A stretch of DNA of 64,000 nucleotides from Acidobacteriota bacterium. GTDB lineage: Bacteria; Acidobacteriota; Polarisedimenticolia; Gp22-AA2. The stretch lies in assembly GCA_046758905.1 (NCBI GenBank), contig JBHIBC010000006.1, positions 6,686 through 70,685 on the forward strand, given 5' to 3'. The translations under genes were made by a program, and so were the position numbers. A model generated the notes under the pieces. The model was not told where the DNA came from, made no database searches, and saw only the letters and a program-made list of their open reading frames with translations. Of the stretch, positions 35,599-51,927 are shown in pieces; position 1 is the stretch's first letter; each line of letters opens with the position of its first letter.

Positions 35599-35601
35599 GC
35601 C

Positions 35602-36105
35602 ATGAGGCACGCCGGCGTGCTGGGGATCTTCGACGACTTCGACTCCTTCATCCGGGCGCTGAAGGAGCTCAAGGGCATGGAGCCCGACAGGATCGTCACC
35701 TACACCCCGATCCCCTGCCACGAGGTCGCCGAGGCGCTGGACCTGCGGCCGAGCCCCATGCGGTACTTCACCCTGGCCGGCGGGCTGCTCGGCTTCGCCG
35801 CGGGCGCCGCGCTGACGATCTACTGTCCGCTGGCCTATCCCCTGGTCGTGGGCGGAAAGCCGCTGATCTCCGTTCCGCCCTATCTGATCATCGCCTTCGA
35901 GCTGACGATCCTGTTCGCGACGATCGTCAGCGCGATCGGGTTCTTCGTGCTGTCCCCGTTCCGCGAGCCGGGCGCCGCACGAGCCTACGATCCGGGGTTC
36001 TCCGAGGACCGCTTCGGCGTGCTCGTCGCGAGCCGCCGGCTCGGCGCCTCGCGTCTAGAGGATGTGCTGAACCGACATGGGGCGGTGCAGACGCGTATCC
36101 AGTAG
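35602..36105 (+). CDS. actD: alternative complex III subunit D (DUF3341)
   Basis: TYTPIP, VGGKP, FELTIL, YDPGFSEDRF. Confidence 0.9.
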   Translation: MRHAGVLGIFDDFDSFIRALKELKGMEPDRIVTYTPIPCHEVAEALDLRPSPMRYFTLAGGLLGFAAGAALTIYCPLAYPLVVGGKPLISVPPYLIIAFELTILFATIVSAIGFFVLSPFREPGAARAYDPGFSEDRFGVLVASRRLGASRLEDVLNRHGAVQTRIQ

Positions 36106-36592
36106 GGCGCCCGTCCGCGCGGCGTTGCTCGGCGCGGCGTTGCTCGGCGCGGCGCTGATCGCCGGCTGCGGGCCGCCGGAGGGCTGGCCCTGGAGGCGGA
36201 ACATGTTCGATTTCCCCGGGCCGCGCCCGCAGGAGGAGGCCCGGCGGCCCCCGGAGCACGTCCTGGCCGCGGACGGGACGGCCCGCGGCCCGGCGCCCGG
36301 CGCGGCGGGCAGGGGCGGGGCGCGAGGGTCCGTGGAGAGGGGGAAGGTGCTCTTCGAGCGGTACTGCTCGGTCTGTCACGGCCCCCTGGGGACCGGGAGG
36401 GAGCTCACCGAGGACTACCCGACGCCGGATCTGACCGAGGAGGACTACCTGCTGCGATCGGATGGCGACATCTACGCGGTGATCGTGGACGGCGGGCTCA
36501 ACATGCCGAGCTACCGAGATGCGCTCACGGAGCCCGACCGCTGGCTCGTGATCCGCTACCTGAGGACGCTGCAGAGATCCCATGCGAAGTGA
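36077..36592 (+). CDS. actE: alternative complex III monoheme cytochrome lipoprotein
   Basis: lipobox IAGC; RGKVLFERYCSVCHG; MPSY; start uncertain. Confidence 0.85.
   Translation: MGRCRRVSSRAPVRAALLGAALLGAALIAGCGPPEGWPWRRNMFDFPGPRPQEEARRPPEHVLAADGTARGPAPGAAGRGGARGSVERGKVLFERYCSVCHGPLGTGRELTEDYPTPDLTEEDYLLRSDGDIYAVIVDGGLNMPSYRDALTEPDRWLVIRYLRTLQRSHAK
36117..36157 (+). repeat. 15-bp tandem repeat (~2.7 copies) in the actE signal peptide
   Basis: GCGCGGCGTTGCTCG twice plus a partial copy; encodes AALLG AALLG AALI. Confidence 0.7.
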
Positions 36593-37817
36593 TCCGGACC
36601 CGGACATCGATCCCCCGATCGTCAGCGCGGCGCGGTGGCTGAAGGTCCTCCTGATCCTCCTTCTCATCCCCGGCCTCCTGCTCTTCGTCGGGGGAGCCCT
36701 GATGCGCCAGGAACAGAGGATCTGGCAGATCTACCTCGTCAACCTGCTGTTCTGGTCGGGATTCTCTCAGGCCGGCGTGGTGGTCTCCGCCCTGCTGAAC
36801 GTGACGAACGGGAGGTGGGGCAGGAACCTGCGCCACATCATCGCCGGGCTGGCGCTTTTCTCCCCCGTCGCCTTCGTCCTGTTCCTCCTCCTGTTCATCG
36901 GCCGGGAGTCGATCTTCCCGTGGATCGAGAGCCCCGTCCCGGAAAAGTCGGCCTGGCTCGACATCACCCACCTCTTCGTCCGCGAGACCTTCAACCTCCT
37001 CCTCCTGAATATCCTGAACGGCGTGTTCCTCTACTTCTCCTTCCGCCCCGATGCCGGCCTCGTGGTGGCGAGGCGGGGCGCCGGATCGCACTTCCTGCTG
37101 AGGCGCATCAGCTCGGGGTGGAGGGGCCGCGACGAGGAGAGGCGACACTGCGAGATCGCTCTGACGCGGCTGTCGCCGGTCCTGCTGCTCGCCTACGCGA
37201 TCGTCTATTCGCTCGTGGCCTTTGATTTCGTCATGTCCCTGGACCCGCTCTGGTACAGCACCCTCTTCGGCGCCTATTACTTCATCACCAACCTCTACAT
37301 GGGGCTCGCTGGCATCGCGGTCGTCGCCATCGTCCTGCGCCGCGCGTTCGGGCTGGAGGCCCACATCACGGGATCGCACTGTCACGACCTCGGGACTCTG
37401 ATCTTCGCCTTCTGCATGATCGCCCTCGACTTCTTCTGGTCCCAGTACCTGGTGATCTGGTACGGGAACATCCCGGAGGAGATCGCCTTTCTGGTCAGGA
37501 GGATCAACGAGGATCGGTGGCGGCCTTTCACCCTGGCGGTGCTCGGGGCCTGCTTCGTGCTTCCCCTGCTGATCCTCCTGAGCCGCAGGGTCAAGAGAAC
37601 GCCCCGACTGCTGCTGCCCGTCGCCTGCCTCGTCTTCGGGAGCGTGTGGCTCGAGCGATACGTGCTCGTCGTCCCGACCATCTGGCACGGCGAGAGCGCC
37701 CCGTTCGCTCTCCCGGAGCTCGTGGTATCGGTGGCTTTTCTCTCCGGGTTCGTCCTGGTCTACCTCGCCTTTCTCGAGCGGTTCCCCATCCTCCCCTCCG
37801 ACGCGCGGCGGGCATGA
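36582..37817 (+). CDS. actF: alternative complex III subunit F
   Basis: polytopic; AFDFVMSLDPLWYSTLFG, HDLG, SQYLVIWYGNIPEE. Confidence 0.92.
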   Translation: MRSDPDPDIDPPIVSAARWLKVLLILLLIPGLLLFVGGALMRQEQRIWQIYLVNLLFWSGFSQAGVVVSALLNVTNGRWGRNLRHIIAGLALFSPVAFVLFLLLFIGRESIFPWIESPVPEKSAWLDITHLFVRETFNLLLLNILNGVFLYFSFRPDAGLVVARRGAGSHFLLRRISSGWRGRDEERRHCEIALTRLSPVLLLAYAIVYSLVAFDFVMSLDPLWYSTLFGAYYFITNLYMGLAGIAVVAIVLRRAFGLEAHITGSHCHDLGTLIFAFCMIALDFFWSQYLVIWYGNIPEEIAFLVRRINEDRWRPFTLAVLGACFVLPLLILLSRRVKRTPRLLLPVACLVFGSVWLERYVLVVPTIWHGESAPFALPELVVSVAFLSGFVLVYLAFLERFPILPSDARRA

Positions 37818-38109: not shown

Positions 38110-39276
38110 GTGCGGACAGGGTCGAGCCAACGGCGCTGGAGCCGCCTGATCCGGGGGATCCTCCCCCTCCTCCTGATCGCCCTCGCCCCGGCGCCGGGCG
38201 CCGCCGGGGCTGACGGCCGCAGGCGGTCGGACCGGGGCCGGCCGGCCGCCGAGCTGGTGTGGCCCCTCCCTCCCGACCCGCCACGCATACGCTACGTCGA
38301 CTCCCTTCGGGGGAGCTCGAACTTCAGGAAGAAGCCGAGCCGCTGGAGGCGCTTCCTCCTCGGCCCCGAGACCGACCGCGGGATCTCCCTGAGGAAGCCC
38401 TATGGGGTCACCACCGACGCCGCGGGGCGGGTCTACGTCTCCGACACGGGGCTCGGCGCCGTGGTCGTATTCGATCGGGATGCCCGGGAGGTCCGCCTGC
38501 TGGGCCACGAGGGGCGCGTCGGTCTCGTGACGCCGATCGGGCTCGCCCTGGACGAGCGGGGGAGGCTGTTCGTCTCCGACGCCGATCTCGATCGCGTCTT
38601 CTGCTTCGGCGGCGAGGGCGAGGTCCTGCTCTCCCTCGGCAGGGAGGAGGGGCTGCACAACCCCGCCGGCCTGGCCATCGACACCGTGCGCCACAGGCTG
38701 TACGTGGCGGACAGCCACCTCCACCGCATCTTCCTGTACTCGACCGACGGCCTGTATCTGACCGCCTGGGGCTCCCGGGGCCGCGCGGAGGGCCATTTCA
38801 ACTTCCCGACCAACCTGGCCCTGGACGCCGGGGGGAACCTCCACGTCGTCGACACGGGCAACTTCCGGGTCCAGATATTCAGCCCCGACGGCGAGTTCCT
38901 CTCGGCGTTCGGCGAGATCGGGGACGGGCCGGGCCGCTTCCATAGACCCAAGGGGATCGGCCTGGACAGCGAGGGGCACATCTACGTCGCCGACGCCGCC
39001 TTCAACAACTTCCAGATCTTCAACCAGGGGGGGGAGCTCCTCCTCTTCGTGGGGACGCTCGGAAGCGGCCCGGGCAATTTCTGGCTGCCGGCCGGCATCC
39101 ACGTCGACCGCTCGGACCGCATCTACGTCGTCGACCAGATCAACGCGCGCGTGCAGATCTTCCAGTACCTGCCGGAGGCGGGAGCGCTCCCGGCCGGGTC
39201 GGATGCGACCGGGGCCGGCGAGCCGCGGCAGGTCCCACCGGGCCCGCAGCGGTCGGCCGCTGCGCGCCGGCCGTGA
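38110..39276 (+). CDS. secreted NHL-repeat (6-bladed beta-propeller) protein
   Basis: VWP.PP..PRI N-terminus; repeats of P.G.A.D..G.LYVAD. Confidence 0.92.
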   Translation: MRTGSSQRRWSRLIRGILPLLLIALAPAPGAAGADGRRRSDRGRPAAELVWPLPPDPPRIRYVDSLRGSSNFRKKPSRWRRFLLGPETDRGISLRKPYGVTTDAAGRVYVSDTGLGAVVVFDRDAREVRLLGHEGRVGLVTPIGLALDERGRLFVSDADLDRVFCFGGEGEVLLSLGREEGLHNPAGLAIDTVRHRLYVADSHLHRIFLYSTDGLYLTAWGSRGRAEGHFNFPTNLALDAGGNLHVVDTGNFRVQIFSPDGEFLSAFGEIGDGPGRFHRPKGIGLDSEGHIYVADAAFNNFQIFNQGGELLLFVGTLGSGPGNFWLPAGIHVDRSDRIYVVDQINARVQIFQYLPEAGALPAGSDATGAGEPRQVPPGPQRSAAARRP

Positions 39277-39293
39277 CGCCGTCCCCACCCATC

Positions 39294-39310
39294 CCGGCAC
39301 GGCTCTCGCA
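39294..39310 (+). promoter_or_regulatory. putative internal sigma54 promoter for the OmcE-like gene
   Basis: CCGGCACGGCTCTCGCA: GG-N10-GC, 50 nt before ATG 39360. Confidence 0.55.
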
Positions 39311-39359
39311 TATGCGGATAGGCCGCGAATGTATGGATCCACCAAAAGGAGATCGAGTC

Positions 39360-40067
39360 ATGAAGATCAGCCGTCTAACCCTCCTGCCCGGGGCGCTCGC
39401 GCTCGTCGTGGGCGTCCTCACGGAGCCGGCCTTCTCCCAGGCCAACATCATCGACACCAAGCACAACCTGTCCTCGACCGCCGGGGCGGACCAGATCGTC
39501 GACAAGTCGACGGACGAGGATCAGATCTGCGTCTTCTGCCACACGCCGCACCAGGCGAGCCCCAGCGCCCCGCTCTGGAACCACACCCAGTCCACGACCA
39601 TGTCCTACGGGGTGTACGGGTCCTCGACCCTCGACGCCTCGGACATCGCCGACATCGGGGGCGGAACGGACGTCTCGAACCTGTGCATGAGCTGCCACGA
39701 CGGCACCGTGGGCGTGAACGACCTCGGGAACCCCGCCAACGACACGGGCGGGAACCCGACCATGGGGACCGGCAACGAGCTGGACGCCACCGGGAAGATT
39801 CTCGGCACCCGATCGGCCAACCTGTCGACCGATCTGAGCAACGACCATCCGGTCAACTTCACCTACGACGCGGCCCTGGCCACCGCCGACGGCGAGCTGC
39901 AGACGCCGGACTCGGTCGACTTCGTGGACGCCGCCAAGACCGTCCCGCTGTTCTCGGCCAAGGTGCAGTGCGCCAGCTGCCACGATCCCCACGACAACAC
40001 GAATCCTCCCTTCCTCGTCAGATCCAACGTCGGCAGCGGCCTGTGCCTCACCTGTCACGCGAAGTGA
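39360..40067 (+). CDS. OmcE-like tetraheme cytochrome c (candidate cytochrome nanowire subunit)
   Basis: AGGAG RBS; Sec signal; TKHNLS, DQICVFCHTPH, PLWN, CMSCHDG, TDLSNDHPVNF, CASCHDPHDNT..PFL, GS.LCLTCH.K match my recollection of Geobacter OmcE. Confidence 0.85.
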   Translation: MKISRLTLLPGALALVVGVLTEPAFSQANIIDTKHNLSSTAGADQIVDKSTDEDQICVFCHTPHQASPSAPLWNHTQSTTMSYGVYGSSTLDASDIADIGGGTDVSNLCMSCHDGTVGVNDLGNPANDTGGNPTMGTGNELDATGKILGTRSANLSTDLSNDHPVNFTYDAALATADGELQTPDSVDFVDAAKTVPLFSAKVQCASCHDPHDNTNPPFLVRSNVGSGLCLTCHAK

Positions 40068-40153
40068 CGGACGATCGATAGCGGCGGTGAGGCCCCCCGC
40101 CCTCCCGACAGCCGGGGGCGGGCCCACCGCAACCCCCGCATGGACGCCGCCTC

Positions 40154-41896
40154 GTGACAGCCGGCCGAATGGCGACCCTGGTCGCGATCCTGATGATCGC
40201 CGTGGGCGTGGTCTACGCTCAGGGCGATCGCGATCGGTGGGCCGCCGCCGGCCCGTTCCGCTGGAGCGGCGTCGCCGAATGGGAGTACTACGAGAGCGAC
40301 TCCACCTCGCAGGGCGTGGGGACCGACTTCAACTCCTTCCGGCAGAAGTACTCCCTCATGCTGGACGGATTCCTCTGGGACCCGCGCTTCAACCGTTTCT
40401 CGATCGGCCTGGACGGCTACCTCACCGACCGCCGGGCGGACGGCGAGCAGCTCGACTCCGACCGGTTCGGATACCGCGCCCAGAGCACCTTCTTCCCGGC
40501 CCGCCCCTTCCCGCTGCGCCTGTACGCGCGCCGCGCGGTGACCGACGCCACGGGCGCCGCCCTCGTGGACAACGATCGGGAGACGGCCGCATGGGGGGCC
40601 GAGTGGCAGCTGTCCACGCGCAGGGTGCGGAGATTCAGCCTCCTCTTCGACAGGACCACGTTCGAGCTCACCAACCCGATCTCGCTCGAGGAGCGGCGCC
40701 AGACCGGACTGCTCAACTTCATGAGCCGTTTCGGGAACAGCGACGTCTCGTTCCGATACGGCCTGAGCTCCCAGAAGGAGCGGGTCAACGCCACCGATTT
40801 TGAGCGTCACAGCTTCACCCTCACCGACCGGACGGCCTTCGACAACGGCGCGACCCTCCTGGTGAGCGCCTTCCACACCCGCTCGGACGCGCTCTTCTCC
40901 ACGGGCCAGACGGACGATCTGAGGACGAGCCGCTTCTCGAGCCGGGTCGATCTGCCCTGGACGGACGGAGCCCGGCTGGGGTTCAGTTACGATCTCAACG
41001 ACAACAGCGGCCGTTTCCTGGACTCCACGAGCCACGTGGTGAAGGCCCAGGGGCGCTTCAAGATGAACTCCCACTGGGAATCGACGCTCGCCCTCGTGCT
41101 GGGCCGGATCGACAGCCTGACGCCGACGAGCGACATCCAGCAGGACCAGCTGGGCGCCCGCGCCGGTGTGAGTTACGGCCGTGACTGGACGAGGATCGGC
41201 CTCACGGCCACCTACTCGATCGGATACGACAGGGCGGACTTCAACATCGGCCCGGACGCGCGCAGCCTCAACCACCTCGCACAGGTGGACACCCGCTTCT
41301 CCCTGGGGGACGCGGGCGATCTGTTCTCCGCCCTCACCTACAGCGTCGGGGACAACGACACGACCGGGATCGGCTTCACCCTCGACGAGCTCCGCGCGAC
41401 GGTGGGCTGGGAGCGGGCGCTCGACGGGCTCTGGAGGGCGCGGGTGTCGACCACATTTCGCAACACGATCTACGACACCTTCCAGTTCGGGGTGCAGGAA
41501 AGCGACGAGATCAGCCTGCAGGGTTCGCTGAGCCACCCCAGAGGCGGCGTCTCGCTGTCCCTGTCGACGAGCGAGGGCGTCTCCGATTTCCTCCCCGACC
41601 CGGGAAGCGGCTCGCCGTTCCTGCCGGGAACCGACCTGGTCAACGAGCGCGACGTGGCCAGCGCCGGGCTCCACTGGAGGATCCTGCGACGCCTGCGCGC
41701 CCGCGTCCAGGCGCGCGTCGAGAGGCGCCGCTTCACGACCATCGGGAGGGAGGATATTCTCTCCCTCCATCCCGAGATCGAGTACCGTCTCGGCAGCTGG
41801 TCGCTCACGGCCGGTTACTCGCGCTACGAGCGGGAGAACGCGACCACCTTCGAGAACGCGACCTGGCTGCTGAGGGTCACGAGGCGGCTCCTGTGA
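40154..41896 (+). CDS. putative outer-membrane beta-barrel (porin) protein
   Basis: signal peptide; alternating polar/aromatic strands rich in S/T/D/Y/F over ~550 aa; no hemes; lies between cytochrome and NHL genes. Confidence 0.72.
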   Translation: MTAGRMATLVAILMIAVGVVYAQGDRDRWAAAGPFRWSGVAEWEYYESDSTSQGVGTDFNSFRQKYSLMLDGFLWDPRFNRFSIGLDGYLTDRRADGEQLDSDRFGYRAQSTFFPARPFPLRLYARRAVTDATGAALVDNDRETAAWGAEWQLSTRRVRRFSLLFDRTTFELTNPISLEERRQTGLLNFMSRFGNSDVSFRYGLSSQKERVNATDFERHSFTLTDRTAFDNGATLLVSAFHTRSDALFSTGQTDDLRTSRFSSRVDLPWTDGARLGFSYDLNDNSGRFLDSTSHVVKAQGRFKMNSHWESTLALVLGRIDSLTPTSDIQQDQLGARAGVSYGRDWTRIGLTATYSIGYDRADFNIGPDARSLNHLAQVDTRFSLGDAGDLFSALTYSVGDNDTTGIGFTLDELRATVGWERALDGLWRARVSTTFRNTIYDTFQFGVQESDEISLQGSLSHPRGGVSLSLSTSEGVSDFLPDPGSGSPFLPGTDLVNERDVASAGLHWRILRRLRARVQARVERRRFTTIGREDILSLHPEIEYRLGSWSLTAGYSRYERENATTFENATWLLRVTRRLL

Positions 41897-41908
41897 CGGG
41901 GAGGTGAG

Positions 41909-43006
41909 ATGAGCGCGGCCCGCGGGACGCCTGGAGAGGGGCGCCGCGCGCTCCTGCGCGCCGGGGTGCCCGCCTGCGGATGGGCGACGATGCTCCTGCT
42001 CGCGGGGCTCGCCTGCCAGCACAAGGCGCCGCGCGACGAGCTCGCCCTGCCGCGCCTCGTCTGGCCTCCTCCCCCGGCTCCGCCGCGCATCGAGCACATC
42101 GGGTCGTTCCGCGAGCCGTCCGACCTCGGGATCCGCAGGAACTGGCTGTCCCGGCTCTTCACCGCCCTCGCCGGCACGCGGCGGCCGACCGCGATGGTCC
42201 GCCCCTATGGCATCGCGGTGACCCCGGAGGGGCGCATCGCCGTCGCGGACCCGGGCGCGCGCTGCGTGCACCTGTACGATCCGGGCCGGCCGCGTTACCG
42301 CCGGGTGAGGTCGGCGGCGAACCAACGCCTGGTCTCGCCGGTGGGCGTCGCGATCGACCCCCGAGGACGGATCTACGTCGCGGACTCCTTCCGCCGGGCG
42401 ATCTTCCGCTACGGCCCGAAGGGTGAGTGGCTGGACACGCTGGGAGAGGAGGAGGGGCTCGTCAGGCCGACCGGCCTCGCCTTCGAGCCGGTACGCGGGA
42501 TCCTCTACGTGGTCGATACCGGCGGCCATCGCGTCCTGGGCTTCGACGCCGAGGGGAACCGCGTCCTGGAGTTCGGCCGCAGGGGCAGCGGGCCGGGCGA
42601 GTTCAACTACCCCGCCGCCATCGCCGTCGGCCCGTCCGGCGACCTGTACGTCACCGACTCGATGAACTTCCGGGTGCAGGTCCTGGATCCCGGCGGCCGG
42701 TTCCTCGGATCCTTCGGGGGGCCGGGGGACGGCCCGGGAGATTTCGACAAGGCCAAGGGCATCGCCCTCGATGCCGACGGCCACATCTACGTGGTGGAGG
42801 GCCTGCACGACGTGATCCACGTCTACGACGGCGGAGGGCGGCTGCTGACCGTCCTCGGCGGGACGGGGAGCGGCCGCGGTCGCTTCTGGCTCCCGACGGC
42901 GATCACCATCGACGGCGCCGGCCGCATCCTGATCTCCGACTCGGCGAACCGCCGAGTCCAGATCCTGCGCTACCTGGGGGAGCCCGGAGGGCGTTCCGAG
43001 GGATGA
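41909..43006 (+). CDS. NHL-repeat lipoprotein
   Basis: lipobox-like GLAC; VWPPPPAPPRI; six NHL-like repeats; paralog of 38110..39276. Confidence 0.9.
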   Translation: MSAARGTPGEGRRALLRAGVPACGWATMLLLAGLACQHKAPRDELALPRLVWPPPPAPPRIEHIGSFREPSDLGIRRNWLSRLFTALAGTRRPTAMVRPYGIAVTPEGRIAVADPGARCVHLYDPGRPRYRRVRSAANQRLVSPVGVAIDPRGRIYVADSFRRAIFRYGPKGEWLDTLGEEEGLVRPTGLAFEPVRGILYVVDTGGHRVLGFDAEGNRVLEFGRRGSGPGEFNYPAAIAVGPSGDLYVTDSMNFRVQVLDPGGRFLGSFGGPGDGPGDFDKAKGIALDADGHIYVVEGLHDVIHVYDGGGRLLTVLGGTGSGRGRFWLPTAITIDGAGRILISDSANRRVQILRYLGEPGGRSEG

Positions 43007-44778
43007 GGGGAAAGGTCCTGCTCGCCGCGCCTCTGCTTCTGCTGCTCGGCTCGGACGCCGGGCGGGCGGAGGTCACGGCCTCCAAGCACGACCTCTCGGT
43101 GAGCGGGACCGGCTCCATCGTGGCGGTGTCCGAGACCCAGGTGTGCATCTTCTGCCACACGCCGCACAACGCGAATCCCGCCGTTCCCCTGTGGAATCAC
43201 CAGCTCTCGTCCGTGGGGAGCTACTCGACCTACTCGAGCACGACCCTGACGCTCCCGACGCCGCTGCAGCAGCCGACGGGCAGCTCGAAGCTGTGCCTCA
43301 GCTGCCACGACGGCACGGTGGCCCTGGGCCAGACGGTCAACGACGGACTGATCGCGCTCCAGAACACGGGCGCGGGCGGGCGCATGCCGGCCGGCGCCTC
43401 CAACCTGGGGACCGATCTGGCCGACGACCACCCGATCTCGTTCCAGCCCAATCCGGCCAACAGCGAGACCCTGGACCCGCCGAGCGGAGACCCGGTGAGC
43501 CTGGACTCCGCCGGCGAGGTCCAATGCACCTCGTGCCACGATCCGCACACGGAGGACAACGACGCCGTCACCAGGCGATTCCTGGTCAAGAGCAATCAGG
43601 CCTCCGCCATCTGCCTAACCTGCCATCAGCCCGACTTCTGGAGCACCAACCCGACCAGCCATCAGTCCTCGACCGCTGCCTATCTCCCCGCCCAGGGCGC
43701 CCACACCGGGTACACGACGGTGGCGGACAACGCCTGTGAGAGCTGCCACCGCCCGCATTCGGGGAACGAGCCTCAGAGACTGCTGAAATTCGTGGAGGAG
43801 GCGACCTGCGACTCGTGCCACGACGGCTCGGTGGCCTCCAAGGACGTGTCGGCCGATTTCCTGAAGCCGTTTGCGCATCCCACCTTCTCCACGACCCCCT
43901 CGGTCCATGACGCGAGCGAATCGCCGTCGGATCCCACGGCCACCCTGCCCGAGATCAATCCCGGCGCGGCGCGCCACGCCGAGTGTCAGGACTGTCACAA
44001 TCCGCACGCGGCCGTCGGACAATCCGCCGCGGCGCCGGACGCGTCCGGCCGCCTGAGCGGGACCTGGGGGATCGACTCCGACGGGGCGCGGCGCGACCCG
44101 GCGCTCGCCGAGTACGAGATCTGCTACAAGTGCCACGCCGACAGCGCCAACAAGCCGCAGGAGGCGGGCCTGCCGTTCCCGCCCTACACCCAGAGGCAAA
44201 TCGTGCAGTTCAACACGCGGCTCGAGTTCGACCCCTTGAACCCCTCGCACCACGGGGTGGAGGCTCCCGGCGCGAACCCCGACGTGCCTTCCCTTCTCGC
44301 GCCCTACACGACCGCGAGCGTCATCTACTGCACCGACTGCCACAGCAGCGACACGGGCCCGGGCGCCGGCGGGGGCGGGGCCGACGGCCCCCACGGGTCG
44401 ATCTACAATCACCTCCTTGAGAGGAACCTGAACGTCGGGGACGGCAACTCGGGAACCGACTTCTCCAATATGTACGCCCTGTGCTTCAAGTGCCATAGCG
44501 AGGCCAGCATCCTGGGCGATCAGAGCTTCCCCCACCACAAACGGCACATCGATCGGGAGAACTCGTCCTGCATGGTCTGCCACGATCCGCACGGGGTCAG
44601 CGCCGCCCAGGGAAACGGCGTCAACAACTCCCACCTGATCAACTTCGACGTGTCCGTGGTGCTGCCGAACACGAACGGCATCCTCATGTTCGAGGACCGC
44701 GGTACGTTCTCCGGGGCCTGCTTCGTGAAATGCCACAACCGGAACCACGACCCCTCGAAGGGAACCGGTGACTATTGA
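43003..44778 (+). CDS. multiheme cytochrome c (11 CxxCH + 1 CxxxCH) with N-terminal OmcE-like domain
   Basis: ATG at 43003 overlapping upstream stop; SKHDLS, CIFCHTPH, PLWNH, CLSCHDG, TDLADDHPISF, then 8 further heme sites. Confidence 0.88.
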   Translation: MRGKVLLAAPLLLLLGSDAGRAEVTASKHDLSVSGTGSIVAVSETQVCIFCHTPHNANPAVPLWNHQLSSVGSYSTYSSTTLTLPTPLQQPTGSSKLCLSCHDGTVALGQTVNDGLIALQNTGAGGRMPAGASNLGTDLADDHPISFQPNPANSETLDPPSGDPVSLDSAGEVQCTSCHDPHTEDNDAVTRRFLVKSNQASAICLTCHQPDFWSTNPTSHQSSTAAYLPAQGAHTGYTTVADNACESCHRPHSGNEPQRLLKFVEEATCDSCHDGSVASKDVSADFLKPFAHPTFSTTPSVHDASESPSDPTATLPEINPGAARHAECQDCHNPHAAVGQSAAAPDASGRLSGTWGIDSDGARRDPALAEYEICYKCHADSANKPQEAGLPFPPYTQRQIVQFNTRLEFDPLNPSHHGVEAPGANPDVPSLLAPYTTASVIYCTDCHSSDTGPGAGGGGADGPHGSIYNHLLERNLNVGDGNSGTDFSNMYALCFKCHSEASILGDQSFPHHKRHIDRENSSCMVCHDPHGVSAAQGNGVNNSHLINFDVSVVLPNTNGILMFEDRGTFSGACFVKCHNRNHDPSKGTGDY

Positions 44779-45688
44779 GGAAGAAGGGAGGCGGGCCGTC
44801 CACCGACGGGCGGCCGCGACGCTCGCGGCGATCGCGTGCTCGCTCCTGATCGTGATCATCGTGGAGGCGCCGCCGGACGGCGGGGAAGGGATCCGCGCCG
44901 CCGAGGCGCCGGGGGGGACCCCGCATCCCGACCTGGAGGGCGTCGAGGACGCGACCTGCGCCGACTGCCACGAGGACCGGGTGGAGGGCGCCGTGGTGCA
45001 CCCGCCGGCCGCGGCCGGGGAGTGCGAATCCTGTCACGAGTTCGCAGGAGCCGGGGAGGAGACGACCGTCTCGCTGATGCTGCCGGAAGAGGAGCTCTGC
45101 GTGACCTGCCACGAGAACCCCGCCGCCGCCCGAGGGGCCGTCGCGCGGCATCCTCCCGCCGAGGAGGGGGCCTGCACCCTCTGCCACGATCCCCATGCCT
45201 CGGGACTGCCGTTCCTGTTCCGCGACCCGGGGAGCGACATCTGCCTGGAGTGCCACGGCGATGTGGCGGAAGAGCTCGAGCGGCCTCAGGTCCACGGCGC
45301 GGTCCGGAGCCTGGGCTGCCCCGCCTGCCACGACCCTCACGCCTCGCCCGTCCGGAGGCTGCTGCGCCGCGCGGGGAACGAGCTGTGTCTCGAGTGCCAC
45401 CTCGGCACCTCCGGCAGCCACCCCCTGAGCGACGCCGGCGAGGTGCTGCTGTTCGAGAGGTGGCCCGCGGACGCGCGCCTGTTCGACGGCATCCCGAAGA
45501 TCGGGCTGCGGGCGGGGGGCACGGGGCATCCGGTGGCGCGCCACCCCGTCCGGGCGGAGCGCAACCCTCTCCGCGCGGAGGAGCCGTTCTGGTGCGGCAG
45601 CTGCCACCCGCCGCACGGCTCGCTCCGCCGACCGCTTCTCGTAGGGGACAGCGGCGGCAGCTTTTGCCTGCAGTGCCACAAGAAGTGA
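44768..45688 (+). CDS. nonaheme paired-CXXCH periplasmic cytochrome c
   Basis: 9 CxxCH in repeated HxP..CxxCHxPH..LCxxCH units. Confidence 0.88.
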   Translation: MTIEEEGRRAVHRRAAATLAAIACSLLIVIIVEAPPDGGEGIRAAEAPGGTPHPDLEGVEDATCADCHEDRVEGAVVHPPAAAGECESCHEFAGAGEETTVSLMLPEEELCVTCHENPAAARGAVARHPPAEEGACTLCHDPHASGLPFLFRDPGSDICLECHGDVAEELERPQVHGAVRSLGCPACHDPHASPVRRLLRRAGNELCLECHLGTSGSHPLSDAGEVLLFERWPADARLFDGIPKIGLRAGGTGHPVARHPVRAERNPLRAEEPFWCGSCHPPHGSLRRPLLVGDSGGSFCLQCHKK

Positions 45689-45837
45689 CGCGCGCGGCGA
45701 CACCCTCTTGGTCGCCATCTCCACTGCTGGTATCGTTCGCCCCGGAGGTCTCGGCGGGAGGATGAGCGGCCGGCCGGGTTTCAGCATGTAGTCCGCAGTA
45801 CGGGAGGCCGGTGGGAGGGCCCCCCGGGCCGGTCCGC

Positions 45838-45854
45838 CTGGCACGCTGTTCGCA
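45838..45854 (+). promoter_or_regulatory. putative sigma54 promoter
   Basis: CTGGCACGCTGTTCGCA: GG-N10-GC, 35 nt before ATG 45889. Confidence 0.7.
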
Positions 45855-45888
45855 AGTTGGTTCGGGGTCATTCTTCGGAGGAGTGCCC

Positions 45889-46440
45889 ATGAAGCGAATG
45901 GTTGCTCTGCTGGCGGTGTCCGTCGGTGTCGTCCTGGTGCTGTCGTCGCCGCGCCCCTCCCGGGCGGCCGAGCGCGCCTACATCGGCGCCCAGAAGTGCA
46001 AGATGTGCCACAACTCCGCGGCCAAGGGGGCGCAGTTCAAGAAATGGACCGAATCGCGCCACTCGAGGGCGTACGCCACCCTCGCCTCGGAGCGGGCCCG
46101 GAAGATCGCGGCCGGGAGGGGGATTGCAGACCCGCAGAAGGCGGACGAGTGCCTGCGCTGCCACGTGGCCGGACACGGCGCGCCCGCCGAGATGCTGACC
46201 CAGAAGTATTCCCCGGAGGACGGCGTCAGCTGCGAGGCCTGCCACGGCCCCGGCGGCGACTACTGGAAGATGAGCGTCATGAAGGACCCGACGAAGGCGG
46301 TCGCGGCCGGCCTGGTCATTCCCGAGGAGAAGACCTGCACGGCCTGTCACAACAGCGACAGCCCGACCTTCGAGTCGTTCGACTTCGCGACCTACTCGAA
46401 GAAGATCGCTCATCCCAACCCGAAGAAGGCCGCGAAATAA
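45889..46440 (+). CDS. cytochrome c554-like tetraheme cytochrome
   Basis: GGAGG RBS; [32 protein letters not shown]. Confidence 0.88.
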
Positions 46441-46883
46441 TGGCTGGGGAGCGGCCGGGGGGCTCGCGGCGCGGCTTTCTGAACTGGTTTCTCGGGACGT
46501 CGTTGGGCGCGATGTGCGCGTCGATCCTGTACCCGGTGGCGCGCTACATCTCGCCGCCGGAGGTGCCGGAGGCGGCGACCTCCAGGGTCGTGGCCGGGCG
46601 GGTCGGGGAGCTGAAGCCGAACGAGGGGAAGCTGTTCCGCTTCGGGAGCCGGCCCGGCCTGCTGATCCTCACCCGCGAGGGCGAGTACAGGGCCTACGCC
46701 GCGACCTGCACCCACCTCAACTGCACCGTCCAGTTCCGCGGCGATCTGCAGCAGATCTGGTGCGCCTGCCACAACGGCTTCTACGACCTGAACGGCGTCA
46801 ACGTAGCCGGCCCACCGCCGCGCCCGCTCGAGAGGTACGCGGTGCACGTCGCGGACGACGAGGTGGTGGTGACCAGGACATGA
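46440..46883 (+). CDS. Rieske [2Fe-2S] protein (copy 1)
   Basis: Tat-like SRRGFL; CTHLNC and CACHNGFY; GPPPRPL. Confidence 0.93.
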
Positions 46884-47995
46884 CGGTGGTCCCCCGGGGC
46901 GCCCGCGGGCGGCTGCTCGACTGGCTCGAGGAGCGGCTGGGCCTGTCCCTCCTCTTGAAGCTGGGAAGGGAGAAGCACGTCCCGCTCCACCGGCACACCT
47001 TCTGGTACTACATGGGCGGGATGACCCTGTTCCTGTTCGGCCTGCAGGTGCTCACCGGGATCCTCCTCCTCCTCTACTACCGCCCGTCGTCCGAAGAGGC
47101 GTTCGAGAGCGTCCAGTTCATCGTCACCAAGGTCCCCTTCGGCTGGCTCATCCGCAACCTGCACTCGTGGTCGGCCAACCTTCTGGTCTTCGTGCTGTTC
47201 GTGCACATGTTCAGCGTCTACTTCCTGAAGGCCTACCGGCGCCCGCGGGAGGCGACCTGGCTCACCGGGTTCGCCCTGCTGGCCCTGATGCTGGGGTTCG
47301 GCTTCTCGGGATATCTGCTGCCCTGGAACGAGCTGGCGTTCTTCGCCACCCAGGTGGGGACCGAGGTCGCGGGATCGCTGCCGGTCGTCGGCCACTTCGC
47401 GCTGCGCCTGATGCGCGGCGGCGAGCAGGTGACCGGCGGGACGCTGACGCGCTTCTACGGCCTGCACGTGGCGATCCTTCCCGCCCTGACCACCCTGGTG
47501 CTGGCGGCGCACCTGTTCCTGGTGCAGAGGCACGGGATGAGCGAGCCTCCCTCCGTGGAGGCCGAGCGCAGGCGGACCGGCGCGCCGCCGCGCTCGCGGC
47601 CGTTCGTGCCCGGGTTCCTCCTGCGCGACTGCATCGGCTGGTGCGCGGCGCTTGGGATCCTTGCGGCGCTCGCGGCGCTGTACCCCTGGGAGCTGGGCGT
47701 GAAGGCCGACCCGTTCGCGCCGGCGCCGGCCGGGATCCGCCCGGAGTGGTACTTCTGCTGGATGTTCCAGCTCCTCAAGGTCCTCCCCGGCCACGTGCTC
47801 GGGATCGAGGGGGAGCTGTTCGGGATCGGGATGATCACGCTCGGGGGCCTGTTCTGGCTGTTGGTCCCCTTCATCGATCGCCCCGCCGAGGCGAGCGACG
47901 GCGCGCGCGGATGGGCGCTGACGCTGTTCGGCTTGGCGTCCCTCGCGTTCATCGTGGTGATGACCATCTGGGCCTACCTCCCGGCGGGAGGGTGA
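46880..47995 (+). CDS. cytochrome b of a Rieske/cytb complex (copy 1, fused subunit IV)
   Basis: four His ligands (HSWSA..VH; LH..AH), GYLLPW, RPEWY. Confidence 0.94.
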
Positions 47996-47996
47996 G

Positions 47997-49274
47997 ATGC
48001 GACGGGCGCCGCTGATTCTCGGAGGGATCGCCCTGGCGGGCCTGATCGCCTTCGCCGAGGAGCCGCCGCCGGGGGAGCGATCCAAGGTCAACAGCTGCCT
48101 GTCGTGCCACTCCGAGTTCGACGGCGAGCTCCTGGAGCCGACCCTGCACGTCGAGGAGGACGTCCACTTCAAGCGCGGGCTGGCCTGCCATGACTGCCAC
48201 GGCGGCGACCCGTCAGCCGGCCTGGACGGCGACCCCGACGAGGCGCACAGCGCCGCCGAGGGGTTCGCGGGCAAGCCGAGCCGCCTCGACACGCCGCGGT
48301 TCTGCGCCCGGTGCCACTCGGACGCCAACCTCATGAAGGCGTTCAATCCCCACGCCCGCGTGGACCAGTGGAGCGAGTACCGGACCTCCAGGCACGGGCG
48401 GCGCCTCGACAGCGGGGACGACAGCGTGGCGGTGTGCACCGACTGCCACGGGGCGCACGGCATCCGCGAGGTCGACGACCCCCGCTCGCCCGTCTACCCG
48501 ACCAACGTGGCCGAGACCTGCGCCGCCTGCCACGCGGACTCCGAGCGGATGGGTCCGCACGGCCTGCCGACGGGGCAGTACCGGGAATACCGCCGAAGCG
48601 CTCACGCCGCGGCGCTGTACGAGAAGGGCGACACCTCGGCCCCGACCTGCAACGACTGTCACGGCAGCCACGGCGCCGTCCCCCCGGGCGTCGAGAACGT
48701 CAGCAACGTCTGCGGCAGCTGCCACGGGCGCGAGGCGACGCTGTTCCGCGAGATCGAGGAGAAGAAGGACATCAACGTCTCCGCCTGCATCCAGTGCATG
48801 ATCTGCCACGACAACCACGCGGTGCTCCGGCCGACCGACGACATGATCGGCGTCGGAGAGAGGTCGACCTGCACCGCCTGTCATGCTGAGGGCGAGCCCG
48901 CCTACGACGCTGTGGCCCGGATGGGGGGCGCCGTCGTCCGCCTGGCGGGCCGTCTCGAGGAGGCGAACGCGCTGCTCGACGCCGCCGAGCGCGCCGGGAT
49001 GGAGGTGGGGCCGGACCGATTCGCGCTGCAGAAGGCGCGGGACCGGCTGGTCGAGGCGCGCGTGCTGGCGCACAGCTTCGACCTCGAGCGTTTCCTGAAG
49101 GTGACGGCCGAAGGGCTGGAGGCGGCCGACGCCGGCGTGGCGGCCGGCCACCGCGCGTTCGCCGACCTGAGGTTCAGGCGCACCGGGCTGGCCCTGTCGC
49201 TCATCGTCATCGCGGCGGTGATCGTGGCGCTGTGGCTGAAGATCCGGCAGATCGAGGCGCGAACCGCGGAGTGA
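47997..49274 (+). CDS. nonaheme cytochrome c with C-terminal coiled region and TM anchor (copy 1)
   Basis: 9 CxxCH; C-terminal hydrophobic helix. Confidence 0.88.
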   Translation: MRRAPLILGGIALAGLIAFAEEPPPGERSKVNSCLSCHSEFDGELLEPTLHVEEDVHFKRGLACHDCHGGDPSAGLDGDPDEAHSAAEGFAGKPSRLDTPRFCARCHSDANLMKAFNPHARVDQWSEYRTSRHGRRLDSGDDSVAVCTDCHGAHGIREVDDPRSPVYPTNVAETCAACHADSERMGPHGLPTGQYREYRRSAHAAALYEKGDTSAPTCNDCHGSHGAVPPGVENVSNVCGSCHGREATLFREIEEKKDINVSACIQCMICHDNHAVLRPTDDMIGVGERSTCTACHAEGEPAYDAVARMGGAVVRLAGRLEEANALLDAAERAGMEVGPDRFALQKARDRLVEARVLAHSFDLERFLKVTAEGLEAADAGVAAGHRAFADLRFRRTGLALSLIVIAAVIVALWLKIRQIEARTAE

Positions 49275-51442
49275 GGTCCAGATCCCGAGCCGATGCGGCG
49301 CGATCGCTCTTGGCGCTGCTGATGCTGGCGGTGCCGGCCGCCGGCCGGGCGCAGGACGGGGAGGATTGTCTGGCCTGCCACGCCGGGCCGGATCCGACGA
49401 TGCGGCGGGGCGGACGGACCGTCCGGCTCCAGGTGGACCGTGCGGTCCTCGGCCGGTCGGTGCACCGGGATCTCCCGTGCGTCGAGTGCCACGCCCGGCT
49501 GAGCCCGGACGCCCTCCCGCACGCCTCCCCGATGGAGCCGGTCGACTGCAGCGGCTGCCATGGCGACGTCACCGGCACGCACCGCTTCCACCGCCCCGCG
49601 GCCCGGGGTCCAGGCTCCTCGTCCGCCTGCGCCGACTGCCACGGCGCACACGACATCCTGCCGCCGGGAGAGCCGGGCTCGCGACTTCACCCCTCCCGTC
49701 TCGTGGAGACGTGCGGCGACTGCCACCCCGAGGTCGCGGCGCGGTACGCCGATTCCGAGCACGGCCGGCAGTTCGCGGCCGGCGTAACGGGAGCGCCGAG
49801 CTGCGTGGACTGCCACGACCGCCCGATCGTCGAGGCCCGCAGGGGGGGCACCATGGCGGAGCACAAGCTCGTCCAGGAGAGGCTCTGCCTCTCGTGCCAC
49901 CTCGACGACCCCCGGGTCCGGGCCCGCGTGTCGCCCGGCGCGGGCTTCATCTCCGCCTACGAGGACAGCGTCCACGGCAGGGCCCTGGCGGAGGGGAACG
50001 GCGCCGCGGCCAACTGCGTCGACTGCCACGGCAGCCACGAGATGAAGAAGGGGTTCGAGCCGACCGCCCGCGTCAACAAGCGGCACATTCAAAGGACCTG
50101 CGGCGGCTGTCACGCGGCGATCGCCGAAAAGTACGCGGCGAGCGTGCACGGCGTGGCTCTCGCCCGGGGCGAGCACGAATCCCCGGTCTGCACGGACTGC
50201 CACGGCGAGCACGCCATACTGCGGCACCTCGATCCCCGATCTCCGGTGGCGCCCGCGAACGTCTCGGTGCAGGTCTGCTCTCCCTGCCACAGCTCGCTGC
50301 GGCTCGCGGCGAAGTACGGCATCGCCTCCGACCGCTTCAAGACCTTCTCCGACAGCTTCCACGGCCTGGCGATCCGAGGCGGCATGGTCGAGGTCGCCAA
50401 CTGCGCCAGCTGTCACGGCTCGCACGACATCCGGCCCTCCTCCGATCCGGCGTCGAGCATCCACCCGCTGAACCTGAGGGCCACCTGCGGTCGGTGTCAC
50501 CCGGGCGCGGGCAGGCGGTTCGCGGAGGGGACGGTCCACCTCCAGGTGAGCGAGGAGCGGGAGCCGGTCCTCTACTGGATCGCCACCGCCTACGCCGGCC
50601 TGATCGTGGTGGTCATCGGCGGGATGTCCGTCCACAACCTGCTGGACTTCGTCCGGAAGGCGCGCCGGCGGCTGAGGATCCGGCGGGGGCTGGAGCCCGG
50701 GGAGCCGGTCGGTCGGGCCCTCTACCTCCGAATGACCCTCGGCGAGCGACTGCAGCACGGCGCGCTGGTCGGGAGCTTCGCGGTGCTGGTCGTCACCGGC
50801 TTCATGCTGCATTACCCCGACGCCTGGTGGGTGAGGGCCCTGGGTCGACTCAGCGACGAGCCGTTCGACTTGCGCGGCCTCCTGCACCGGATCGCCGGAG
50901 TCGTCATGGTCGGCGCGTCCCTGTACCACGTCACGTACCTGGTGTTCTCGGATCGCGGCCGTCGGTTCCTGCGCGACATCCTGCCGCGGCGCGGCGACCT
51001 GTCCGACGCCGCCGCGGCCCTGCGGTTCAACCTCGGACTGAGCGGGCGCGGCCCGCGCTTCGGGCGGTTCGGGTACGTCGAGAAGAGCGAGTACTGGGCT
51101 CTGGTGTGGGGGAGCGTCCTGATGACGCTGACCGGGATGGTGCTGTGGTTCGAGGAGATCTCCATCGGGCTGCTCACCAAGCTCGGGTGGGAGATCTCCC
51201 GCATCGTCCACTTCTACGAGGCCTGGCTGGCCGCGCTGGCCGTTCTGGTCTGGCACCTCTATCACGTCATCCTGAGCCCGGACGCCTACCCTATGAACGT
51301 CTCCTGGCTCAGCGGCACCCTCAGCGAGGCGGAGATGGCCGCGGAGCACCCGCTGGAGCTGGAGGCGATCCGGGCCCGGCGGGCGGCGGACCCGGGCGCG
51401 GCGCGGCCGACCGCGGGGCGCCGGAGCCCGGAACGGACCTAG
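49271..51442 (+). CDS. CbcL-like protein: 13-heme periplasmic domain fused to FdnI/HydC-type cytochrome b
   Basis: GTG at 49271 overlapping upstream stop; 13 CxxCH; ERLQH, LLHRIAG, EKSEYWALVWG, HFYEAWLA, WHLYHV, EHPLE. Confidence 0.88.
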   Translation: MRSRSRADAARSLLALLMLAVPAAGRAQDGEDCLACHAGPDPTMRRGGRTVRLQVDRAVLGRSVHRDLPCVECHARLSPDALPHASPMEPVDCSGCHGDVTGTHRFHRPAARGPGSSSACADCHGAHDILPPGEPGSRLHPSRLVETCGDCHPEVAARYADSEHGRQFAAGVTGAPSCVDCHDRPIVEARRGGTMAEHKLVQERLCLSCHLDDPRVRARVSPGAGFISAYEDSVHGRALAEGNGAAANCVDCHGSHEMKKGFEPTARVNKRHIQRTCGGCHAAIAEKYAASVHGVALARGEHESPVCTDCHGEHAILRHLDPRSPVAPANVSVQVCSPCHSSLRLAAKYGIASDRFKTFSDSFHGLAIRGGMVEVANCASCHGSHDIRPSSDPASSIHPLNLRATCGRCHPGAGRRFAEGTVHLQVSEEREPVLYWIATAYAGLIVVVIGGMSVHNLLDFVRKARRRLRIRRGLEPGEPVGRALYLRMTLGERLQHGALVGSFAVLVVTGFMLHYPDAWWVRALGRLSDEPFDLRGLLHRIAGVVMVGASLYHVTYLVFSDRGRRFLRDILPRRGDLSDAAAALRFNLGLSGRGPRFGRFGYVEKSEYWALVWGSVLMTLTGMVLWFEEISIGLLTKLGWEISRIVHFYEAWLAALAVLVWHLYHVILSPDAYPMNVSWLSGTLSEAEMAAEHPLELEAIRARRAADPGAARPTAGRRSPERT

Positions 51443-51455
51443 GGGAGGAGATCCC

Positions 51456-51914: not shown

Positions 51915-51927
51915 GGGACGGCCGACC

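Follow-up and report, generated by a model that had tools for sequence, protein, structure and literature searches.

What starts and stops a cytochrome nanowire, anchors it and connects it electrically to the cell is a question raised explicitly in a 2026 study of OmcE bundles (PMC13712944), and the locus analysed here bears on it. This locus lies in a stretch of 64,000 nucleotides (the window) of contig JBHIBC010000006.1 of an Acidobacteriota bacterium (assembly GCA_046758905.1), in which the gene at 43003-44778 on the forward strand encodes a secreted cytochrome with twelve heme motifs, called here the 12-heme protein. An earlier note on this DNA had taken the product for a fusion of an OmcE domain with eight additional hemes and for a candidate nanowire base, adaptor or tip. 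On the grounds of sequence and modelled fold, residues ~23-212 are indeed an OmcE paralog, and we tentatively lean to the view that the whole is a dedicated terminal adaptor, which would cap one end of an OmcE polymer and extend its heme chain toward or through a 28-strand barrel encoded in the same cluster. The family represents a concrete, widely conserved and testable candidate for nanowire termination or anchoring.

Gene model and heme complement

The open reading frame (ORF) at 43003-44778(+) is free of internal stops and translates into 591 amino acids, which can be divided in the following way.

43003..43068, + strand: Sec-type signal peptide (residues 1-22, MRGKVLLAAPLLLLLGSDAGRA), read directly from the sequence
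43069..43638, + strand: OmcE-fold tetraheme domain, hemes 1-4 (residues 23-212), with the conserved non-motif histidines H29, H55, H143 and H182
43639..43836, + strand: junction that looks like the beginning of another OmcE unit (residues 213-278: TSH220QSS, CESCHRPH, CDSCHDGSVA)
43735..44778, + strand: eight-heme extension plus stop codon (residues 245-591; seven CxxCH plus CFVKCH)

The product contains 11 CxxCH motifs and one CxxxCH, the terminal CFVKCH. The earlier note had counted 11 CxxCH motifs and eight additional hemes, and both figures stand: the CxxxCH comes on top of the 11, and residues 245-591 hold the seven motifs CESCH, CDSCH, CQDCH, CYKCH, CTDCH, CFKCH and CMVCH followed by CFVKCH. 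Pfam recognised heme-motif families in the protein and no other domain, a make-up with signal peptide that is also found in UetJ, the undecaheme protein of the Uet clusters discussed below. Conservation was read from an alignment of 58 family members, the rows of which were hand-chosen as full length and mostly show the 11+1 motif pattern. The Cys/His triplets of all 12 motifs are invariant in this alignment, and 16 non-motif histidines are invariant or at least 90% conserved, which should be enough for the 12 hemes of the protein itself and for one histidine donated outward.

Residues 1-47 contain no cysteine, so that the search for a lipobox of the OmcB/OmcC type was negative, and considering the cysteine-free signal peptide the protein is not a lipoprotein. 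In this respect it differs from the outer 12-heme lipoproteins (OmcB/OmcC type) of the Geobacter Pcc complexes, which we take to be defined by a lipobox cysteine. The ATG at 43003 overlaps the stop codon of the NHL gene at 41909-43006 (ATGA), and its own stop codon shares nucleotides with the start codon (GTG) of the cytochrome gene that follows at 44768; given the overlaps at both junctions, the genes for the second NHL protein, the 12-heme protein and the 9-heme protein appear to be translationally coupled. A longer frame of 783 amino acids, starting from a GTG at 42427, was regarded as a high-GC artefact (70% GC) and discarded, because it runs through the NHL gene at 41909-43006 for its first 192 codons and the ATG at 43003 yields a normal signal peptide.

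An OmcE fold at the N-terminus

The proposed relationship with OmcE was originally based on a series of motifs shared with the tetraheme protein encoded at 39360-40067, i.e. SKHDLS, CIFCHTPH, PLWNH, CLSCHDG, TDLADDHPISF, QCTSCHDPH and FLVKSNQASAICLTCH. Every one of these is present in the 12-heme protein, and the same motifs were matched in the tetraheme protein upon inspection. The direct alignment of the two products that had been suggested as a check covers residues 6-208 at 40% identity (BLASTP, E 3e-37), a likeness well above what chance would give. In a phmmer search of the PDB the N-terminal domain recovered the OmcE filament of G. sulfurreducens (7tfs_A, E 2.5e-31) and the OmcE of D. 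soudanensis (9yuq_N, E 3.2e-22).

The AlphaFold2 model of the 12-heme protein, for which the 58 chosen family members served as input, reached a predicted local distance difference test (pLDDT) of 89.6 and a predicted TM-score (pTM) of 0.87; like all structural models used here it is heme-free. The OmcE fold expected for the N-terminal domain is adopted in this model, as residues 28-209 superpose on 7tfs_A with a Z-score of 14.5 and a root-mean-square deviation (rmsd) of 2.1 Å over 172 of 202 residues. Foldseek, comparing the same model to 7TFS, gave an E-value of 1.3e-10 and a target-normalised TM-score (TMt) of 0.70. Since the 7TFS structure (released in 2022) postdates the training cut-off of the AlphaFold2 weights that were used, the match should not reflect model memory. 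Of its four conserved non-motif histidines, H29 and H182 do not vary among the 58 sequences, while the conservation of H55 and H143 is at least 90%. All four align with H35, H64, H163 and H211 of OmcE, and the four heme motifs are colinear.

The junction and the eight-heme extension

When the OmcE family was compared with residues 213-591 using hhalign, a match was obtained (probability 98%, E 1.4e-13) in which residues 33-118 of OmcE, containing the N-terminal histidine, heme 1 (CxxCHxPH) and heme 2 (CxSCHDGxVA), are paired with residues 218-278. The histidine of this junction, H220, is at least 90% conserved. The possibility that the whole extension consists of two further OmcE repeats was rejected, as only 218-278 aligns convincingly after realignment and the remaining hhalign matches (probability 93-97%) are short or out of register and mostly driven by heme motifs.

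The model resembles the porin-threaded decaheme MtrA (MtrCAB complex, PDB 6R2Q chain A) over the region of hemes 2-11, with a Z-score of 10.4 and an rmsd of 3.9 Å over 238 of 265 residues (model range 92-547), a match that came from the VIA wide structure search alone. Foldseek on the extension returned nothing beyond 7TFS, the next best match having an E-value of 0.43. Both proteins are modelled or known as linear rods and both are encoded alongside a large barrel, but a sequence family is not shared: the 12-heme protein scores 49.6 bits against the DmsE/MtrA family model TIGR03508 (cut-off 192.2) and is therefore not a member of that sequence family, and the barrel in the window, with about 28 strands, is only generically MtrB-like.

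Two lineages of tetraheme units and three forms of the protein

To relate the N-terminal domain to free-standing OmcE proteins, we built a tree of 128 tetraheme units, all cut after the fourth heme motif (quick IQ-TREE search, arbitrary root). One branch with an SH-aLRT support of 98 parts all 54 free-standing subunits from all 74 N-terminal domains. The former group comprises 50 OmcE-type proteins, including one from a relative of G. sulfurreducens, and four UetA-like proteins; the latter comprises 59 fused, 10 split, three UetJ-like and two domains of a 750-residue form, and the split ones nest among the fused. The two groups also differ at the chain end. In 51 of 53 free-standing relatives the chain stops two residues after the fourth heme histidine, and in one more it stops after one residue, whereas 7-27 residues follow in nine of the ten split N-terminal proteins and 383 in the fused 12-heme protein. 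OmcE itself (PDB 7TFS; DSOUD_2954 of D. soudanensis, PDB 9YUQ) thus has its four heme motifs, four distal histidines and fold in common with the N-terminal domain, but belongs to a clade of its own and has a free C-terminus, while the 12-heme protein carries eight more hemes. Considering this sister lineage, the missing free C-terminus and the additional hemes, the 12-heme protein is a paralog and probably not a polymerising subunit.

The fused form is not the only one. Among 401 sampled genomes of Desulfobacterota, 45 matched at E <= 1e-15, and these fell into three groups. The full-length form occurs in about two dozen genomes. A second group is characterised by ORFs of ~750 amino acids and 11 CxxCH, in which the match is confined to the first ~350 residues, and a third has a split form, in which genes for an NHL protein, a tetraheme and an octaheme are adjacent in all 10 loci that were fetched (L115-L124). 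The split tetraheme is as close or closer to the N-terminal domain of the 12-heme protein than to OmcE. The split octaheme has 357-470 amino acids with seven CxxCH plus one CxxxCH and shows homology to residues ~230-591 (E 1e-40 to 1e-50). In 10 out of 10 cases it carries a signal peptide of its own, closely followed by a histidine that lies 10-13 residues ahead of the first heme motif. The occurrence of NHL, tetraheme and octaheme as separate adjacent genes provides Rosetta-stone support for the functional coupling of these parts, in this case via gene fission.

One of the genomes with a split form, G107, has an OmcE that matches 7tfs_A with an E-value of 7e-119, and therefore represents a close relative of G. 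sulfurreducens. It contains a true omcE cluster (L125: ResB, CcsB, two DmsE-like multiheme cytochromes (MHCs), NHL, OmcE, a barrel of 746 amino acids and glycosyltransferases) and, at a different place, the split module (L115, G107:C1:3051000-3070000). According to our reading of the ORFs, the latter has the order NHL-tetraheme-octaheme-triheme and is found between lon/clpP/tig-like and GspE/GspF/PilM-like genes. Perhaps it corresponds to the GSU1785-1788 region of G. sulfurreducens. GSU1786 has been listed among the periplasmic MHCs, and GSU1787 has been described as a c-type cytochrome that is down-regulated by a plasmid.

Variants of 734-817 amino acids with 11 CxxCH, which keep the OmcE-like N-terminal domain and have diverged or insertion-rich extensions, were observed in L126 and L127 of Desulfobacterota and in L139-L141 of a gammaproteobacterial order. 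The L141 cluster also holds an OmcE-like protein with five CxxCH motifs; a family of 5-heme OmcE-like proteins has been noted before (PMC13712944).

Phylogenetic spread and conserved gene order

The family is widespread. A word-indexed protein search returned 7976 matches at E <= 0.001 among 8000 candidates scored, the best 120 of which have a length of 506-615 amino acids and are 50-100% identical to the 12-heme protein. An exhaustive search of representatives at 50% identity gave 480 matches at E <= 1e-30 and 3448 at E <= 1e-10, the latter including plain OmcE-like proteins. The heme complement is rather constant: within 110 listed representatives of 540-700 amino acids the combination of 11 CxxCH and one CxxxCH occurs 69 times, 11+0 19 times and 10+2 13 times, and among 117 close relatives in the same size range 70 have 11+1 and 47 have 10+1. 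At least 638 species-representative genomes possess a relative (638 of 660 pattern-matched stretches). The titles of the metagenome-assembled genomes (MAGs) behind the best 80 loci include Acidobacteriota, Vicinamibacterales, Calditrichota, Eisenbacteria, Ignavibacteria, Bacteroidetes, Verrucomicrobia, Planctomycetota/Phycisphaerae, Nitrospirota, Gamma- and Betaproteobacteria, Desulfobulbia, Anaeromyxobacter, Binatia and others. A relative was also found in a MAG titled Ignavibacterium album. Closer to home the distribution is patchy, with matches in seven of 31 genomes when the genome of the window is taken together with 30 sampled relatives, and two of the seven have the tetraheme part only. 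Judging from these data, uncultured Acidobacteriota, Planctomycetota, Verrucomicrobiota, Bacteroidota/Ignavibacteria and others commonly seem to possess OmcE-type machinery, which bears on the question how widespread long-range extracellular electron transfer is.

Gene order was evaluated for the best 80 loci, requiring a minimal upstream flank of 1.1 kb for the NHL gene and of 7 kb for the OmcE-like gene. The gene immediately before the 12-heme gene encodes an NHL protein in 69 of 76 loci, and 46 of 50 loci contain a separate gene for an OmcE-like tetraheme. In 38 of these 46 loci the OmcE-like gene is found upstream on the same strand, at a distance of 2.9-7.7 kb. The barrel of the window was recognised in only two of the 80 loci (tblastn), which we attribute to barrels at the same position elsewhere being too divergent for this query. 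In one locus, from a MAG titled Woeseiaceae (L071, 8279-13798), there are two full-length 12-heme genes in tandem, each with its own NHL gene upstream.

Predicted docking onto OmcE

OmcE and OmcS subunits join in a head-to-tail arrangement, in which the neighbouring subunit contributes a histidine ligand to one heme (PMC9473688, PMC12307469). An interface between the 12-heme protein and the OmcE-like neighbour, which the earlier note had put forward as a check, was predicted in all three runs, with ipSAE values of 0.75, 0.75 and 0.76 versus 0.00 for the best of three controls. At least 94% of the contacts were common to the runs and the pLDDT of both partners was at least 88. The mark used is attained by 116 of 157 solved complexes and by two of 215 mismatched pairs. 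On the OmcE side the interface comprises residues 160-163, 207, 223-230 and the C-terminal K235, and on the side of the 12-heme protein residues 22-25, 32, 34, 45-63, 113, 169 and 182. The N-terminal face of the 12-heme protein is thus predicted to dock on the C-terminal, heme-4 face of OmcE, and in the models this is the geometry expected if the 12-heme protein takes the place of the next OmcE subunit. The earlier suggestion that such a protein could nucleate or cap the filament may therefore be narrowed down: the modelled geometry favours capping of one specific end, the OmcE heme-4 face, over nucleation at either end.

Relation to the Uet clusters

The count of 11 CxxCH motifs beside NHL and porin genes had led to a comparison with Uet clusters, ascribed there to Gallionellaceae. 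The cluster was first defined in Tenderiales, so that this attribution has to be corrected. In Ca. Tenderia electrophaga it encodes a tetraheme (UetA), a peptidyl-prolyl isomerase (PPIase; UetB), a barrel (UetC), c7 trihemes (UetD/E/G), a cupredoxin (UetF), NHL proteins (UetH/I) and the undecaheme UetJ, followed by ccsAB (bioRxiv 10.1101/2022.05.06.490989); it was only later found in some Gallionella, six in number (PMC10734462). We found the published uet gene order in two loci of a gammaproteobacterial order (L139, L140), which contain, consecutively, genes for an NHL protein, an OmcE-like tetraheme (phmmer 1e-39), a PPIase (Rotamase/SurA_N), a protein of 591 amino acids without a family, c7 trihemes, two unassigned proteins, c7 trihemes, an NHL protein, an 11-CxxCH protein of 793 amino acids, ResB and a CcsA-type assembly protein. 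In this order, which holds a MAG titled Thioalkalispiraceae, 28 of 75 genomes matched. In a family-level search around a Burkholderiales MAG the protein was found only in that MAG (1/151), and no Gallionella Uet locus was obtained.

The alignment with UetJ that had been proposed could be made with the UetJ-like protein of 793 amino acids from a uet-ordered locus, rather than with UetJ of Tenderia. It covers residues 1-499 at 32% identity (E 3e-67) and runs through the tenth heme motif with many insertions, the UetJ-like protein being about 200 amino acids longer. The clusters are alike in that an NHL gene lies ahead of the gene for an 11-CxxCH cytochrome and that a tetraheme and a barrel are encoded as well, and the N-terminal domain of the UetJ-like protein is OmcE-like, a feature that the text of the Uet papers at hand does not describe. 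In the region 38110-46440 of the window no PPIase, c7 trihemes, cupredoxin or ccsAB were found, all of which are present in L139, and given the absence of these extras the window represents a minimal OmcE-type cluster and not a Uet cluster. The suggested link between Uet and OmcE filaments hence holds through the homologous parts they share, although the window is not itself a Uet locus. These common components connect the OmcE nanowire system with the Uet cluster, which serves electron uptake in cathode and iron oxidisers.

Proposed role and alternatives

Given the above, the terminal adaptor might work as follows. The N-terminal domain belongs to an old lineage of OmcE paralogs and would keep the face docking on the heme-4 end of OmcE, including the histidine arm (H29), and its opposite face, the docking site for a next subunit, would be filled by its own polypeptide. 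As one docking face is kept and the other is covalently occupied, it would join one end only. The continuation would mimic the histidine arm and the first two hemes of another OmcE unit and then proceed as a linear MtrA-like rod, so that subunit addition would stop at this single polymer end and the heme chain would become longer by eight hemes (about 7 nm by our estimate). In the cell-proximal placement that we favour, the adaptor would end the filament. With the help of the NHL lipoprotein translated along with it, the heme chain could enter or cross the barrel in the direction of the DmsE-like 9-heme cytochrome of the periplasm.

Between base and tip, we would tentatively favour the base, on four grounds. 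In chaperone-usher pili, a PapH-type terminator is a paralog of the major subunit that has a donor and no acceptor; it ends growth and anchors the fibre at the barrel. The 12-heme protein would similarly have its donor element free and its acceptor occupied. Furthermore, its gene is coupled or adjacent to genes for periplasmic-type cytochromes in all three arrangements, namely the DmsE-like 9-heme protein in the window, the triheme after the split octaheme (L115) and the c7 trihemes in the uet-ordered loci. The modelled rod is, thirdly, MtrA-like, and, fourthly, a very wide barrel is encoded alongside. The pilus analogy has been raised before (PMC13712944) and would be purely functional, as the 12-heme protein has no sequence or fold relation to PapH-type pilins, its donor would be a heme-ligating histidine arm instead of a beta-strand, and it is fused to an electron-conducting rod. 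A position at the distal tip, where the protein would be the first unit exported and its rod would contact minerals, electrodes or partner cells, seems to us quite unlikely. The one-ended docking geometry of the model would suit a tip as well as a base, the signal peptide is plain and without a lipid anchor, and a tip protein that is OmcE-like with more exposed hemes is sought in the discussion of PMC13712944 (mBio 2026). By the same pilus analogy, a fibre growing from its base would nevertheless need a free acceptor face on its tip unit, precisely the face that is covalently occupied here, and the coupling to genes for periplasmic-type cytochromes does not fit a tip either.

Alternatively, the barrel could form a stand-alone Mtr/Pcc-like conduit across the outer membrane with the 12-heme and 9-heme proteins, without any role in a filament, the OmcE-like domain being merely a reused tetraheme module that perhaps binds a single OmcE-like partner. 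The combination of a barrel, a periplasmic DmsE-like MHC and a 12-heme MHC parallels the Pcc of Geobacter and the Mtr of Shewanella, the MtrA-like superposition points the same way, comparable clusters of Acidobacteriota and Verrucomicrobiota with OmcE-like MHC models have been called porin-scaffold-cytochrome conduits (bioRxiv 10.64898/2026.05.27.727921), and in the Uet literature UetJ is modelled as an extracellular heme wire. We still consider this explanation unlikely, because the great majority of loci keep a separate OmcE-type gene with the short C-terminus typical of polymerising subunits, the N-terminal histidine is invariant in 58 of the 58 chosen sequences, and the predicted interface is head-to-tail. 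Even less probable would be a periplasmic wire that bridges inner-membrane quinol oxidases, i.e. alternative complex III (ACIII) and Rieske/cytochrome b, to an outer-membrane complex. In its favour, the cluster is flanked by an ACIII operon (31266-37817) on one side and by Rieske/cytochrome b genes (46.5-53 kb) on the other, the signal peptide is only of the Sec type, and a rod with 12 hemes, of an estimated length of about 10 nm, might extend across much of the periplasm. The known homologs of the N-terminal fold are, however, all extracellular filament subunits, the pairing with an NHL lipoprotein and a barrel is conserved, and extracellular localisation is predicted for UetJ in the Tenderiales preprint (bioRxiv 10.1101/2022.05.06.490989).

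Several observations weigh against the terminal adaptor. A separate OmcE gene is absent from four of the 50 well-flanked loci, which also favours the conduit, and in the Geobacter-like genome the split module lies outside the omcE cluster, beside genes resembling those of a type II secretion system (T2SS). Since OmcE-OmcE filaments have been solved (7TFS, 9YUQ), the docking result may show only the likeness of the N-terminal domain to OmcE; H29 is not among the confidently touching residues of the heme-free model, and which OmcE heme would take the histidine of the neighbour is our own inference. The N-terminal histidine of the split octahemes is placed by MAFFT on H234 and not on the conserved H220, on account of which an equivalence with H220 is no more than possible. 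The rows of tree and alignment were hand-picked from tblastn hits, and the tree search was a quick one. For the lumen of the barrel, the DmsE-like 9-heme protein qualifies at least as well. MtrA sits in its barrel with the N-terminus on the periplasmic side, and since the superposition is colinear, the OmcE domain would end up on the wrong side if the 12-heme protein were seated like MtrA. In addition, that this organism makes filaments is presumed from its genes.

Comparison with known clusters

The gene set in the window is exactly that of the smallest omcE cluster reported for Desulfuromonadia, with two MHCs, two beta-propeller lipoproteins, OmcE and a large barrel (PMC13712944). The type of cluster is hence already known, as omcE cluster, as Uet and probably as porin-scaffold-cytochrome cluster. 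The authors of that study reasoned that an anchor should resemble OmcE and have an extra histidine, and they state that the omcE operons contain no anchor or tip candidate; neither Uet nor Acidobacteriota is mentioned by them. The anchor candidate that they derived with AlphaFold3, Dsoud_2415, is OmcE-like with four hemes and nine histidines and is encoded outside the omcE cluster, a position they counted against it. As far as the descriptions can be compared, its arrangement resembles that of the split N-terminal proteins of the Geobacter-like genome, whereas the form in the window is fused to an octaheme and located inside an OmcE-type cluster. Related clusters from peat Acidobacteriota and Verrucomicrobiota (EET1/EET3/EET4) contain syntenic MHC and porin genes, have MHC models that are OmcE-like and MtrA-like, and are transcribed in peat (bioRxiv 10.64898/2026.05.27.727921); in the text of this preprint, to which the comparison was confined, we found neither an OmcE-domain fusion nor a split form nor a role in capping. 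Within the literature searched, bioRxiv supplements and figures not being covered, we encountered no mention of an OmcE-paralog domain in a large cytochrome, of its separate ancient lineage, of the fused and split forms or of a junction that mimics a subunit.

A more far-reaching idea, possible though rather doubtful, is that the OmcE clusters, the Uet clusters and the porin-scaffold-cytochrome clusters of uncultured Acidobacteriota, Verrucomicrobiota and Planctomycetota are variants of one ancient machine, found in hundreds of species and more than a dozen phyla. It would consist of a polymerising tetraheme and a terminal adaptor whose lineages predate the phyla, and the adaptor (as fused 12-heme protein, split 4+8 pair or long UetJ) would halt polymerisation through a covalent mimic of the next subunit, which occupies the acceptor face, and wire the filament through the barrel. 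No earlier example would then be known, for any cytochrome nanowire, of an element that controls assembly and provides anchoring.

Neighbouring genes in the window

The gene order in the region 38110-46440 is NHL, OmcE-like, barrel, NHL, 12-heme, 9-heme and 4-heme, so that the NHL and porin genes that the earlier note placed beside the 12-heme gene are indeed there (NHL at 38110-39276 and 41909-43006, barrel at 40154-41896).

38110..39276, + strand: NHL beta-propeller protein 1 (388 amino acids from GTG; Pfam NHL E 1.1e-28; 6-bladed propeller DUF5128)
39360..40067, + strand: OmcE-like tetraheme, the presumed polymerising unit (235 amino acids, four CxxCH)
40154..41896, + strand: large outer-membrane beta-barrel (580 amino acids, about 28 strands in the model)
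41909..43006, + strand: NHL beta-propeller protein 2, a probable lipoprotein (Pfam NHL E 1.4e-32; lipobox-like LLLAGLAC by our own reading)
44768..45688, + strand: nine-CxxCH DmsE/MtrA-like cytochrome (306 amino acids, N-terminal hydrophobic segment; Paired_CXXCH_1 E 6.6e-40)

The OmcE-like tetraheme matches 7tfs_A with E 1.3e-39 (residues 13-235) and 9yuq_N with 4e-31, groups within the OmcE/UetA clade of the tree and ends two residues past the fourth heme histidine. The barrel model, for which 24 homologs were found, has a pLDDT of 82.2 and 29 strand elements. The barrel gave no match in Pfam, NCBIfam or the PDB sequences, and Foldseek recovered only generic large barrels, among which LptD and MtrB (query-normalised TM-score, TMq, 0.43), with the FimD usher coming first by E-value. 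The gene for the first NHL protein has a GC content of 0.93 at third codon positions (GC3) and its signal region lacks a cysteine. As only the second NHL protein has a lipobox-like sequence, and the propeller upstream of the 12-heme gene and the one adjacent to OmcE can be told apart by their best matches across loci, the two appear to be specialised. The 9-heme protein matched TIGR03508, the DmsE-family decaheme model, with an E-value of 1.3e-25, which is under the curated cut-off.

The surroundings of the cluster are also rich in respiratory genes. Directly upstream, at 31266-37817, there is an operon that resembles ACIII as read from ORFs only, with a molybdopterin-like subunit of 1001 amino acids, membrane subunits and a monoheme protein. 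At 45811-56000 a 4-heme cytochrome is followed by two modules of Rieske protein plus cytochrome b, each in turn followed by 9-heme proteins; this region includes a protein of 736 amino acids in which 13 CxxCH are fused to a membrane domain (49232-51442), and it forms an unusually heme-rich quinol-to-periplasm module adjoining the cluster. No RNA run was listed as containing 39360-45688; the same segment occurs nearly whole in contigs of three hydrothermal-vent metagenome runs from one study, one of which is possibly the source. Finally, the same genome encodes a second OmcE-like tetraheme on another contig (C62:2357-3061), which is 79% identical to that of the window. It is solitary, without NHL, barrel or multiheme neighbours, and may be a spare or variant filament subunit.

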